Origin: an uncultured Planctomycetales bacterium
Lineage (GTDB): Bacteria > Omnitrophota > Gorgyraeia > Gygaellales > Profunditerraquicolaceae
Direction of reading: 5' to 3'
NCBI GenBank assembly: GCA_964603585.1
Contig: CAZRVK010000002.1
Coordinates: 179,513 to 243,512, forward strand
Length of the DNA stretch: 64,000 bases
Positions 31,881 through 57,175 of this stretch are shown in pieces (position 1 is the first letter of the stretch; each line of letters begins with the position of its first letter). A program made the position numbers and the translations under genes. The notes under the pieces were generated by a model. That model was given only the letters and a program-made list of their open reading frames with translations, was not told the origin of the DNA and did no database searches.

Positions 31881-32211
31881 TACAAATGCCTCCTTTTAAT
31901 ATACGCTAATTTTACCATGCCCCGTCTTAAAAAACAAGGCAAAAAACAGGGAATGGTCTTCCTCCGCCAGAGAATAAATGTGTCACTCCTGCCAATTCCC
32001 ACATTCAAGCCTAAAAAAGAATTTTGTTTTGAAACAACAGAATTCCAGTTTAACAAGCCCTAATCTAAAAACCTTAACGATATATTTGTTCTTTCCCGGA
32101 GTGTTTTTACCGATCATGGCTGTCATTTTCTCCCTCTGGCATAATTGAAAGGCCTTCTGCTTATTAAACGCATAGGCCGGAAAAAAGTTTCATAATTTTA
32201 GCCGGGACAAG

Positions 32212-32245
32212 AAACAAAAAAGCACTCCGTAAAGAGTGCTTTTAA
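32212..32245 (-). terminator. rho-independent terminator downstream of tRNA-Asp
   Basis: Minus-strand GCACUC-UUUACG-GAGUGC hairpin followed by UUUUUUGUUUCUUG. Confidence 0.6.
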
Positions 32246-32263
32246 AATACCGCATAATATAAA

Positions 32264-32339
32264 CGGGGCCGACGAGATTTGAACTCGCGATCTTCGCCGT
32301 GACAGGGCGACGTGTTAAACCAGACTACACTACGACCCC
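32264..32339 (-). tRNA. tRNA-Asp (anticodon GUC)
   Basis: Reverse complement GGGGTCGTAGTGTAGTCTGGTTTAACACGTCGCCCTGTCACGGCGAAGATCGCGAGTTCAAATCTCGTCGGCCCCG folds as a cloverleaf: 7-bp acceptor, anticodon loop CTGTCAC, T-arm GTTCAAATC. Confidence 0.85.
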
Positions 32340-32346
32340 AGGACTA

Positions 32347-32384
32347 CAGATTCAAGATTAAAGGACCAAGACTCAAGAATGAAG
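32347..32384 (+). repeat. heptamer tandem array CAGATT-CAAGATT-AAAG... (left arm of an inverted pair)
   Basis: Plus strand reads CAGATTCAAGATTAAAGGACCAAGACTCAAGAATGAAG. It is the inverted counterpart of the array at 32756-32820 and overlaps the stop of the four-helix-bundle gene. Confidence 0.7.
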
Positions 32385-32735
32385 TGATTTAATTATTGTA
32401 CACAAAATTTTAATAACTTCAATGTTTTCTTTTTCTATTCCGAGCAAATCCGACTTATCAAAACAAATCACTTTTGAATCTTTTAATATCTGCAACCAAT
32501 TGTCAAACTCATAACTTGAGTTTAACGCGATCTGAAAATATGTTTCTTTTTGTTTCGCGTTATGAGAATCGTTACCTTCTGCGACATTGGCCCCTACCGA
32601 AGTAGCTGCGCCGAAACATTGATCAATAATTCTCGAATATTTTGGATTGCTTTTATCCAGTAAATTTATGATTAAAAGCGCATTTTTATGTGCCTTTTGC
32701 CAAACGATAAGTCTTCTATAACTCGGCTCACCCAT
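32373..32735 (-). CDS. four-helix-bundle protein ('23S rRNA intervening-sequence protein' family)
   Basis: LIVWQKAHKNALLIINLL ... QCFGAATSVGANVAEGNDSHNAKQKETYFQIALNSSYEFDNWLQILKD matches the TIGR02436/PF05635 pattern (VWQ..., NIAEG). Confidence 0.8.
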   Translation of the reverse strand: MGEPSYRRLIVWQKAHKNALLIINLLDKSNPKYSRIIDQCFGAATSVGANVAEGNDSHNAKQKETYFQIALNSSYEFDNWLQILKDSKVICFDKSDLLGIEKENIEVIKILCTIIKSLHS

Positions 32736-32755
32736 ACCGCCTAAAATCGCAGGTC

Positions 32756-32820
32756 TTGCCCTCTGAATCTTGGATCTTTGATCTCGAATCTTGAATCTTT
32801 AATCTTGAATCTTGAATCTG
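32756..32820 (-). repeat. heptamer tandem array (CAAGATT)n, ~8 units, immediately 3' of tRNA-Val
   Basis: Minus strand reads CAGATT CAAGATT CAAGATT AAAGATT CAAGATT CGAGATC AAAGATC CAAGATT CAGAGG, starting 6 nt after the tRNA-Val discriminator. Confidence 0.8.
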
Positions 32821-32826
32821 CATTTA

Positions 32827-32900
32827 TGGGCGGTAGAGGACTCGGACCCCTGACCTTCTCTGTGTAAGAGAGACGTTCTAACCAGCTGAACTAACCGCCC
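32827..32900 (-). tRNA. tRNA-Val (anticodon UAC)
   Basis: Reverse complement GGGCGGTTAGTTCAGCTGGTTAGAACGTCTCTCTTACACAGAGAAGGTCAGGGGTCCGAGTCCTCTACCGCCCA. Perfect 7-bp acceptor, anticodon loop CTTACAC. Confidence 0.85.
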
Positions 32901-32932
32901 TGCGATCTAACTTCCGGATTCAAAAGATAAAT

Positions 32933-33382
32933 TTACAGTTTGCCTAAGGTGCCTAAGGTAAAAGCCATGACAAATAAAGCTACGGTTTCGATAACACCCA
33001 AAACAACGATATAACTACCAAATCCCTTTCCGGTCTCTCCCATCGCATCACAAGCACTTGCCGCGGCCTTACCCTGCCAATAAGCAGAAAGCCCGATAGC
33101 CAATCCGGCAAACAGGCCGATACTCCACAAATATATACCTTTATTTACCATTTCGAGGATTTTATTCATTACGATCATCCCATACACTGTTTGAGTAAGC
33201 GGAGCGCCAACAAATGCGACCAGCATAAACGATGCCGGCTTGTTTTGAGAAAGATTCTTTTTCCAGGCGCCAATCGCGCTCATTCCGGCAATACCTGATC
33301 CTAAAGCCGAACCACACGCCGAAAGGGCTAAAGCCATAATTGCCCCTAAATCCTTAAATTGCCCCATTAACCCGTTATCCAT
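32933..33382 (-). CDS. atpK: V-type ATPase subunit K (proteolipid c-ring subunit)
   Basis: 149 aa, four hydrophobic helices, Gly/Ala-rich. Last gene of the V-ATPase operon. Confidence 0.75.
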   Translation of the reverse strand: MDNGLMGQFKDLGAIMALALSACGSALGSGIAGMSAIGAWKKNLSQNKPASFMLVAFVGAPLTQTVYGMIVMNKILEMVNKGIYLWSIGLFAGLAIGLSAYWQGKAAASACDAMGETGKGFGSYIVVLGVIETVALFVMAFTLGTLGKL

Positions 33383-49789: not shown

Positions 49790-49796
49790 CTTTTAT

Positions 49797-49826
49797 CTCG
49801 AATCTTCAATCTTAAATCTGTATTTT
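49797..49826 (-). repeat. heptamer array CAGATT-TAAGATT-GAAGATT-CGAGATA directly 3' of tRNA-Arg
   Basis: Minus strand CAAAAATA CAGATTTAAGATTGAAGATTCGAGATA. Same unit and phase as the array after tRNA-Val. Ends 7 nt before the ATG of the LOG-like gene. Confidence 0.7.
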
Positions 49827-49898
49827 TGCGCCTGGACAGAATCGAACTGTCACAACTGGCTCCGGAGGCCAGTGCTCTATCCGTTGAGCTACAGGCGC
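49827..49898 (-). tRNA. tRNA-Arg (anticodon CCG)
   Basis: Reverse complement GCGCCTGTAGCTCAACGGATAGAGCACTGGCCTCCGGAGCCAGTTGTGACAGTTCGATTCTGTCCAGGCGCA. Acceptor GCGCCTG/CAGGCGC, anticodon loop CTCCGGA. Confidence 0.85.
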
Positions 49899-49903
49899 AT
49901 TAA

Positions 49904-56883: not shown

Positions 56884-57100
56884 TTATGTCCCCACGGGGA
56901 TTTTTAATGAGGCCATAACTTACGGAATGAGCGCAGCGAATGAACGTAAGTTATTTGGCCGAATTAATCCCGCGCTTTAGGCGGGAGAACCCCGGTCGAG
57001 AGCTTGTCCCGCATCCCGCTGCTTAAATACCTGATGCGGGATCCCGCTCATCTCCTCAAAACTGCCGGAGCGGGAAAAAGCTCTTGTCCTACCTTATTTA
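56884..57100 (-). pseudogene. 5'-truncated second copy of tRNA-Glu(UUC), interrupted in the anticodon loop and T-loop by two hairpin-rich insertions
   Basis: Minus strand GGACAAGAGCTTTT[~70 nt TCCCGC...GCGGGA]CAAGCTCTCGACCGGGGTTC[~85 nt TCCCGCCTAAAGCGCGGGA...]AAATCCCCGTGGGGACA. Removing the bracketed segments reproduces nt 25-75 of the intact tRNA-Glu exactly. Both copies are followed by TAAATA. Confidence 0.6.
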
Positions 57101-57175
57101 TGTCCCCACGGGGATTTGAACCCCGGTCGAGAGCTTGAAAAGCTCTTGTCCTAGACCAGGCTAGACGATGGGGAC
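57101..57175 (-). tRNA. tRNA-Glu (anticodon UUC)
   Basis: Reverse complement GTCCCCATCGTCTAGCCTGGTCTAGGACAAGAGCTTTTCAAGCTCTCGACCGGGGTTCAAATCCCCGTGGGGACA. 7-bp acceptor, anticodon loop TTTTCAA. Starts 4 nt after the gyrA stop. Confidence 0.85.

Follow-up and report, generated by a model that had tools for sequence, protein, structure and literature searches.

What is a gene of the 23S rRNA intervening-sequence (IVS) protein family, bracketed by inverted arrays of a tandem heptamer, doing between two tRNA genes? The question is raised by the interval between tRNA-Val and tRNA-Asp in a 64,000-nucleotide (nt) stretch of contig CAZRVK010000002.1 (assembly GCA_964603585.1, positions 179,513 to 243,512), which belongs to an uncultured bacterium of the phylum Omnitrophota and is referred to here as the window; all positions below are those of the window unless a locus is named. 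The genes of the region all lie on the minus strand, in the order V-type ATPase (V-ATPase) subunit K, tRNA-Val, cassette, tRNA-Asp and terminator. The explanation favored here, to which we give a probability of about one half and which leans on analogy with known elements, is that the interval holds an IVS-type cassette living on host transcripts, with a promoter-less gene of the PF05635 family placed within a heptamer stem that would serve RNA processing. PF05635/TIGR02436 is a very large family, for which we know of no function established since 1993 outside the diversity-generating retroelements (DGRs).

The heptamer stem between the two tRNA genes

A sequence-only reading of this DNA had placed inverted heptamer arrays and a gene of the 23S IVS family between tRNA-Val and tRNA-Asp, an arrangement that is confirmed by ARAGORN, Rfam, Tandem Repeats Finder (TRF) and profile matches (Table 1). 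Its open reading frame (ORF), given there as 123 codons long, encodes 120 amino acids (aa). Both arrays are present, the copies in the 3' arm being far more degenerate than those in the 5' arm, and the 3' arm overlaps the stop codon. The 5' arm is made of the units CAGATTC, AAGATTC, AAGATTA, AAGATTC, AAGATTC, GAGATCA, AAGATCC and AAGATTC, and on the strand opposite to it TRF finds 4.4 degenerate period-7 copies at 32348-32378. Allowing up to three mismatches, the 20-mer AAGATTCAAGATTCAAGATT has six matches in the window, against 0.01 expected from shuffles of the window.

That reading had proposed folding the minus-strand RNA; over the span from 32900 to 32263 the minimum free energy structure keeps both tRNA cloverleaves and pairs the arms into a long stem of 33 pairs (32818-32782 with 32378-32342) with a mean pair probability of 0.93. 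The arm duplex holds runs of 16 and 13 contiguous pairs, the arms alone reach -40 kcal/mol, and the z-scores are -4.7 for the whole transcript and -7.8 for the arm duplex. A permissive Rfam search of 32100-33000 returned the two tRNAs only, so that the arms are covered by no known RNA family. A promoter scan stayed at chance level, with no promoter-like site in the 5' arm or the 5' untranslated region (UTR), and the terminator-like hairpin past tRNA-Asp, the sole terminator in the region, closes the transcription unit. A second PF05635 gene was looked for in the window and none was found.

The 18 nt that precede the ATG (32735-32752) are 78% complementary to the tRNA-Val 3' end and its trailer (32818-32835; inverted repeat I5). 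This pairing was considered and rejected: it is not conserved in the orthologues, and is therefore probably due to chance.

Orthologues at the same tRNA pair

Retrieved contigs and loci carry L-numbers, among which L001 and L002 are Logan contigs, from runs SRR15237810 and SRR15237811, identical to the window over the region. The nearest proteins carry the annotation Candidatus Omnitrophota. Eleven further Omnitrophota contigs (L003, L004, L005, L083-L087 and L167-L169) carry an orthologue with 53-75% aa identity, and in 11 of 11 it sits between tRNA-Val(tac) and tRNA-Asp(gtc). The contig of another locus, L089, ends after the gene and shows tRNA-Val upstream only, and L088 (49% identity) has no detectable tRNA, its array following a tRNA-like 3' end. 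The upstream genes vary: most loci have V-ATPase I-K, L167 and L168 have pyrD-pyrF, and L169 has an F-type ATPase. As the orthologues keep the tRNA pair despite these differences, the gene is tied to the tRNA pair and not to a protein-coding neighborhood.

In every orthologue the ORF is preceded by an array of purine-rich heptamers and followed by a pyrimidine-rich arm complementary to that array. The unit is AAGATTC in the window, AAGAAGG in L003, AAGAWTT in L004, AAGARCT in L005, L083, L084, L168 and L169, GGGGTAA in L087 and GAGTGRA in L088. The stems of the orthologues open with CAG and close with CUG, and the CUG lies 6-7 nt ahead of tRNA-Asp in all of them, the CAG being found 6 nt past tRNA-Val where the 5' arm directly adjoins it (L003, L004, L005, L083, L084); across the other loci in which an arm comes directly after the upstream tRNA, the linker measures 6-8 nt. 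The 5' arms pair with their own 3' arms at a mean of -38.2 kcal/mol, against -26.9 kcal/mol with the arms of other loci (permutation p = 5e-5), and this advantage of own-arm over foreign-arm pairing indicates that the arms co-evolve.

Two of these loci show additional features. In L085, an insertion sequence (IS)-like ORF of about 1.2 kb (1211-2500) is inserted on the opposite strand within the 5' heptamer array, and a tRNA-like fragment (GGGGTCG...CGCCCACCA) follows tRNA-Val. In L169 (3375-3500), a duplicated tRNA-Val 3' end (GGCTCGCCCA) stands directly ahead of the linker and the CAG array, and it looks as if a later insertion had regenerated the tRNA end and displaced the old junction.

Empty sites and the host tree

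The comparison with tRNA-Val/tRNA-Asp loci lacking the insert, also suggested by the sequence-only reading, yielded four empty relatives, L163-L166. In these Omnitrophota, V-ATPase K (74-82% identical to that of the window), tRNA-Val(tac) and tRNA-Asp(gtc) follow one another in order, and the tRNA spacers, which measure 54, 93, 104 and 158 nt, contain neither an ORF nor a long array. The presence of the cassette at this conserved site is sporadic, with 12 filled Omnitrophota loci and four empty ones. In a neighbor-joining tree of V-ATPase I and K (608 columns, with the filled locus L089 as outgroup), filled and empty genomes interleave: L005 (filled) clusters with L165 and L166 (empty) at 87% bootstrap, and the window with L163 (empty) at 67%, which implies that the cassette has been lost, or gained, more than once at one site. 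The V-ATPase I subunits of hosts sharing the site are only 38-58% identical. The 120 aa of the four-helix-bundle (4HB) protein give a gene tree with internal branches too short for its congruence with the host tree to be judged. The empty spacer of L165 (3732-3835) holds three TAGTCNA units and a 9-bp closing stem, and may be an ORF-less remnant of the cassette.

Such a distribution could also be explained at the level of DNA, if the arrays served as terminal inverted repeats, or formed a cruciform, in a cassette that is mobile or recombinogenic, and if DNA processes kept them complementary without any role in RNA. Besides the interleaved presence and absence among relatives, this proposal is favored by the unrelated contexts in which the cassettes occur (tRNA pairs, operon spacers and, from the literature, rRNA), by the IS element within the 5' array of L085, by the variation in heptamer copy number between Coxiella strains (PMC4990558) and by the lack of a sense-strand G·U excess in the stems, detailed below. 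We consider it unlikely, however, because no transposase or recombinase occurs in the cassette or nearby, though an enzyme encoded elsewhere might act in trans, and no target-site duplication is visible beside the arms: the linkers TAAATG and TAGTCCT are unrelated, and the orthologues have no flanking direct repeat. Moreover, the site is conserved across hosts as divergent as their V-ATPase I subunits indicate, the arm sequences differ by lineage, unlike conserved transposon termini, the purine/pyrimidine asymmetry of the arms is strand-specific relative to the gene, and the base of the stem keeps a fixed distance from the tRNA ends. The first three of these points, namely the missing transposase, the missing target duplication and a position conserved across deep divergence, also leave unsupported the earlier suggestion that the element is a mobile module.

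A second tRNA pair

A second subfamily, with 31-36% identity to the query, occupies the spacer between tRNA-Lys(ttt) and tRNA-Glu(ttc) in four contigs: L013, which comes from a metagenome-assembled genome of Thermodesulfovibrionia, L092, L103 and L119. These loci share the geometry of linker and CAG at one end and CUG and linker at the other, with heptamers that are again different, a 3' linker of 7-9 nt and duplex z-scores from -5.3 to -8.0. Their proteins are only marginally nearer to the Val/Asp group than to tRNA-free members of the family, and these protein distances fit a single entry into the tRNA niche as well as two. Spacers between tRNAs, in two different pairs, constitute an apparently undescribed stable-RNA niche for an IVS-type cassette; our literature search, which was incomplete, found no paper placing a PF05635 cassette between tRNAs.

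The four-helix-bundle protein

The 120-aa protein matches PF05635 (E = 1.6e-18, 67.3 bits, cutoff 33.8) and TIGR02436 (E = 1.6e-20, 73.3 bits, cutoff 24), and its AlphaFold2 monomer model has four long helices and a mean predicted local distance difference test score (pLDDT) of 94.7. Foldseek aligns the model to Xcc0516 (2GSC), BT_0352 (2RLD) and Avd (4DWL) with template modeling (TM) scores of 0.88, 0.75 and 0.77, respectively, and also to the DGR ribonucleoprotein entries 8UB7 and 8UB8, which contain Avd of the Bordetella phage DGR; profile searches match 2RLD and 2GSC, five chains each, and the homologues with solved structures are pentamers. At least 4,732 clusters at 50% identity match the narrow subfamily profile. 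S46, N50, E53 and G54 are invariant in the subfamily, in which the Arg position of the family motif GxxRxxxSxxxNxxE, as quoted in PMC3936711, is occupied by Gly, Ala or Ser (QCFGAATSVGANVAEG). PADLOC and PHROGs gave no match for the protein.

Avd is a pentamer that binds stem-loops of the DGR RNA, the upstream and downstream segments of which pair (bioRxiv 10.1101/2023.10.23.563531). The protein of the window shares the fold of Avd, but at about 10% sequence identity, and neither a reverse transcriptase nor template/variable repeats were found among the neighbors of its ORF. By this analogy, the protein probably binds structured nucleic acid, and the obvious candidate would be the heptamer duplex of its own transcript. 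Among the orthologues, the median ratio of nonsynonymous to synonymous substitution rates (dN/dS) is about 0.14, with dS saturated, and 25 positions are invariant; judged by these comparisons, the ORF is under purifying selection, which is evidence that the protein is functional in the tRNA-spacer niche and would not be a decaying passenger.

Heptamer brackets throughout the family

About 145 distant PF05635 loci (25-43% identity) came out of two collection scans. They belong to Chloroflexota, Acidobacteriota, Gemmatimonadota, Planctomycetota, Patescibacteria, Gammaproteobacteria, Bacteroidota and Firmicutes, and many of them are, by eye, flanked by inverted tandem heptamers specific to their lineage. 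Examples are the unit pairs GAGAACC/CAGTTCT, TGAAYAA/TTRTTCA, AGAACAA/TTTGTTC and TAGCTTC/GCTAGAA, and the units CAGCCRT and TAGTACW. For counting, 160 PF05635 loci (L003-L162) were taken as two independent samples of 80, and an array was called when TRF found a period of 7 with at least 2.8 copies within 200 nt of the gene. Arrays occurred on either flank in 57 of 80 loci in the first sample and in 58 of 80 in the second, and on both flanks in 35 and 25 loci; their density was 3.4 and 3.0 per kb in the flanks, and 0.17 per kb elsewhere in each sample. In the second sample, period 7 accounted for 91 of the 128 flank arrays, compared with 35 of 116 arrays elsewhere, and the two units were reverse complements in 21 of the 25 loci with arrays on both flanks.

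These counts contradict the notion that the arrays are there by chance, or as generic hairpins of intergenic DNA with no tie to the gene. Period-7 arrays do occur in 26 of 180 other intergenic regions of the same loci (14%), as that notion would have it, but they are present in 123 of the 198 gene-adjacent ones (62%; odds ratio 9.7, p = 3e-22). With the replication in two independent samples and the excess of matches to the 20-mer in the window, this leaves the notion scarcely credible.

Read on the sense strand, the upstream arm is the one rich in purines in 58 loci, against 29 (p = 0.0025). Of 273 neighboring genes, 206 have the same orientation as the PF05635 gene. Arrays have a median length of 4.3-4.4 units, and 42% of the downstream ones begin at or before the stop codon. 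This last observation, with many upstream arrays abutting the start codon, a unit length of seven that is not a multiple of three, and the polymorphic copy number in the Coxiella IVS (PMC4990558), could point to a phase-variable switch, in which units gained or lost by strand slippage would change the 5' UTR, the register of the stem or the frame at the ends of the ORF, and so toggle the gene. Such a switch leaves the need for two complementary arrays unexplained, and no polymorphism is seen among the window, L001 and L002, which have one and the same sequence here; we regard it as very unlikely.

Most PF05635 loci are found away from tRNAs. About 145 of the 160 have no tRNA within 2.5-3 kb, and most of these are intergenic and co-oriented with protein-coding neighbors; 16 of the 160 lie between tRNAs. 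None of about 165 loci carries several conserved 16S/23S motifs, and in an Rfam scan of 20 loci at the gathering thresholds the only hits were the 5' end of a 16S gene at a distance of 1.7 kb (L009) and a glmS ribozyme (L017), from which it follows that the family sample is not rRNA-embedded. The heptamer arms consequently belong to the gene family and not to the tRNA site, and the earlier proposal that the family marks a stable-RNA insertion module is not supported, as the large majority of the sampled loci are tRNA-free and no sampled locus sits within an rRNA gene. Bracketing by inverted heptamers characterizes PF05635 genes across the family, the classic 23S IVS of Coxiella included. As a cis signature of the whole family, the complementary arrays unite classic IVS, operon-embedded and tRNA-embedded copies; within a literature search that was incomplete, no paper was found that links the PF05635/TIGR02436/S23p family generally to inverted heptamer arrays.

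Comparison with rRNA intervening sequences and a proposed mechanism

The IVS of Coxiella burnetii is a 428-nt insertion in helix 45 of the 23S rRNA, which carries the PF05635 ORF S23p (Warrier et al. 2016, PMC4990558). Its 28-bp terminal stem is cleaved by RNase III, and two to four tandem GACAGAT heptamers, variable in number among strains, directly precede the S23p start (PMC4990558). PF05635 ORFs are also found in 16S and 23S insertions of bacteria of the candidate phyla radiation (CPR; bioRxiv 10.1101/2024.02.27.582315). The element of the window resembles these IVSs (Leptospira and Coxiella 23S, CPR 16S/23S) in that a long terminal stem of inverted repeats holds a PF05635 ORF in its loop, that the element is part of a stable-RNA precursor and lacks a promoter of its own, and that it is sporadic among relatives; it also shares with the Coxiella IVS the tandem heptamers directly upstream of the ORF (PMC4990558).

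The location, in contrast, is a spacer between tRNAs and not an rRNA helix, so that removal of the element fragments nothing. The architecture of an rRNA IVS, which the sequence-only reading had recognized here, therefore holds for the PF05635 ORF in the loop of a long stem within a stable-RNA transcript, but not for the position in an rRNA helix, and the element is best called an IVS-type variant and not an IVS proper. The arms are long heptamer arrays where Coxiella has a unique 28-bp repeat, the ORF reported there as decaying and untranslated is here under purifying selection, and the RNase III cleavage shown there is suggested here by the anatomy. Long imperfect duplexes also flank functional RNA segments in other RNase III processing stems and intercistronic hairpins (rRNA operons, T7 early mRNA, REP-type elements); the duplex of the window differs from them in that it encloses the gene of one specific protein family and is built of tandem heptamers.

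The model proposed here is that the cassette would be transcribed within a host transcript together with both tRNAs, as suggested by the 32-nt gap to V-ATPase K, the lack of a promoter-like site and the terminator past tRNA-Asp. Pairing of the arms would then give about 33 bp of duplex, whose runs of 16 and 13 contiguous pairs would be long enough for a double-strand-specific nuclease. At its base, the trailer of tRNA-Val (6 nt from the tRNA 3' end to the stem) and the leader of tRNA-Asp (7 nt from the stem to the tRNA 5' end) would be held as short single strands. The duplex would serve both for double-strand-specific processing and for insulation, most likely as a substrate of RNase III, a role proposed for the arms by analogy with rRNA IVSs. 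Cleavage would separate the pre-tRNAs, which RNase P and RNase Z would finish, and would release the mRNA of the gene with base-paired, exonuclease-resistant ends. A tRNA spacer, a dispensable rRNA helix and the intergenic region of an operon would all be low-cost sites for such a hitch-hiking cassette.

Several observations weigh against this model. The 3' arms of some orthologues (L167, L169) are weak, and the start codon of the 120-aa ORF lacks a convincing Shine-Dalgarno sequence. In Coxiella, the IVS ORF is reported as decaying and seems to be untranslated, and the excised RNA is rapidly degraded (PMC4990558), which argues against the release of a stable mRNA as a general rule. Across 74 loci with a clear stem, G:T mismatches, which the sense RNA would carry as G·U, occur 142 times and A:C mismatches 140 times, so that there is no signature of selection on a sense-strand RNA helix, and the complementarity of the arms could arise at the DNA level, through slippage and hairpin-templated correction. 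Finally, arrays occur in places where the gene does not. A solo array of the AAGATTN family (Table 1) lies in the window without a cassette, 5 nt past the 3' end of tRNA-Arg(CCG) (49826-49899, minus strand), and of 63 distant arrays in related genomes, 20 have the unit found beside the 4HB gene, against 2.4 expected. Since these gene-less arrays have the shared unit, arrays can live independently of the gene.

Arrays without the gene and a possible role for the protein in trans

The solo array turned up in the search for heptamer arrays elsewhere that the sequence-only reading had called for, carried out over the window. It extends into the ATG of a 159-aa ORF (49789-49310); an inverted partner was looked for and none was found, and no four-helix-bundle gene occurs at the site. 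Within the 64 kb, the AAGATTN unit thus occurs at two loci, as a pair of arrays in one and as the solo array in the other, and arrays that stand beside tRNAs regardless of the gene, which that reading had named as evidence against itself, are represented in part by this solo case. Inverted heptamer pairs with no 4HB gene between them are also seen in other intergenic regions of L030 (6045-6103), L032 (952-1410) and L082 (several sites), and some of these pairs carry the unit that flanks the 4HB gene of their contig.

Heptamer arrays have been described genome-wide in other bacteria. In Xanthomonas campestris, the GGGAATC array has 186 copies, and a four-unit array lies between bccP and XCC0516, overlapping the annotated start codon (PMC4692102, supplementary file 2); the genus has 70-75 convergent array pairs, whose function is not known. 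XCC0516 (locus XCC0516/XCC0517) is the crystallized PF05635 pentamer, and PMC4692102 makes no comment on the array at its start. In Geobacter metallireducens, hepta- and octanucleotide arrays are paired on opposite strands, and the authors proposed that an unidentified global regulator binds them (PMC2700814); the supplements of that paper make no mention of the PF05635 family. These arrays, together with GGGGAYT (short tandemly repeated repetitive, STRR) of Nostoc and TAACTGA of Beggiatoaceae, resemble those described here in consisting of about 3-8 intergenic tandem heptamers (PMC4692102, PMC4679880, PMC2700814), often in convergent pairs on opposite strands, with a genome-specific unit and in some cases abutting start codons. 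They differ in that the papers do not connect them with PF05635 genes, and in that only two loci of the 64-kb window carry the unit.

It could be argued from these arrays that the protein acts in trans, PF05635 pentamers recognizing heptamer-repeat RNA or DNA, so that the arrays flanking the gene would be autoregulatory members of a genome-wide set of binding sites and the position between tRNAs would be secondary. This proposal, which is compatible with the processing model, seems to us possible though doubtful. The gene-less site beside tRNA-Arg and the sharing of units by distant arrays speak for it, as do the Xanthomonas array at the XCC0516 start (PMC4692102), the paired arrays and proposed regulator of Geobacter (PMC2700814), the typical array length of about 4.4 units and the binding of RNA stem-loops by Avd. 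A further point is the enrichment, over the 160 loci, of AG in upstream units (82%, against 50% in shuffles) and of CT in downstream ones (78%, against 45%); the excess, however, drops to 64% versus 44% (p about 0.04) once related units are collapsed, and an AG-per-heptamer signature was set aside as support because it is then only marginal. Further points against trans recognition are the several different heptamers found within one locus in many genomes, and a subfamily protein that lacks the conserved Arg of the family motif.

Both proposals would be joined if PF05635 proteins and inverted heptamer arrays formed one widespread cis/trans system, in which the protein's own gene lies in the loop of the hairpin that it recognizes and rides on host transcripts, whether in rRNA, tRNA spacers or operon spacers. 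We offer this as a speculative idea, slightly more doubtful than the trans proposal taken by itself. If it were true, the genome-wide heptamer arrays of Xanthomonas, Nostoc, Beggiatoaceae and Geobacter would have their missing factor, and the '23S rRNA IVS protein' and Avd would both belong to a family that binds repeat RNA. The abundant and unexplained heptamer arrays of bacteria may in this way gain a candidate protein partner.

Features of the locus and other observations in the window

The coordinates are collected in Table 1. The neighbors that could be called are V-ATPase subunits, a tRNA-binding protein, a CxxCxxCC protein and an LPG_synthase_C protein.

Table 1. Elements of the tRNA-Val/tRNA-Asp interval, in transcript order, followed by the solo array
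Feature	Positions	Strand	Basis or remark
V-ATPase K subunit gene	33382-32933	minus	stop codon 32 nt before tRNA-Val
tRNA-Val, anticodon UAC, CCA not encoded	32827..32900	minus	ARAGORN; Rfam RF00005, 64.5 bits
Single-stranded linker, 6 nt, UAAAUG, from tRNA-Val 3' end to first CAG of 5' arm	32821..32826	minus	sequence
5' arm, eight tandem heptamers	32764..32820	minus	TRF period 7, 8.0 copies at 32764-32819, score 77; fold
5' untranslated stretch, 28 nt, from array to ATG	32736..32763	minus	sequence; promoter scan
120-aa PF05635/TIGR02436 ORF	32373..32735	minus	profile matches; stop codon 32375-32373 inside 3' arm
3' arm, degenerate inverted heptamer copy, minus strand CTTCATTCTTGAGTCTTGGTCCTTTAATCTTGAATCTG, last bases CUG	32347..32384	minus	TRF; inverted repeats I1-I4; fold
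Linker, 7 nt, UAGUCCU, from stem-closing CUG to tRNA-Asp 5' end	32340..32346	minus	sequence
tRNA-Asp, anticodon GUC	32263/4-32339/40	minus	ARAGORN; Rfam, 65.6 bits
Intrinsic terminator-like hairpin and T-run, 20 nt past tRNA-Asp	32218..32243	minus	11-bp stem, then TTGTTTCTTG; inverted repeat I10
Solo array CAGATTT AAGATTG AAGATTC GAGATAA AAGATG (CAGATTTAAGATTGAAGATTCGAGATAAAAGATG)	49790..49820	minus	AAGATTN family

Elsewhere in the window, just 3' of tRNA-Glu (57101-57175, minus strand), a partial second copy of a tRNA-Glu anticodon arm and T-stem is found at about 56985-57095 on the minus strand. It reads GGACAAGAGCTTTT, followed after about 70 nt by AAGCTCTCGACCGGGGTTC, and could be an integration scar or an interrupted tRNA pseudogene.

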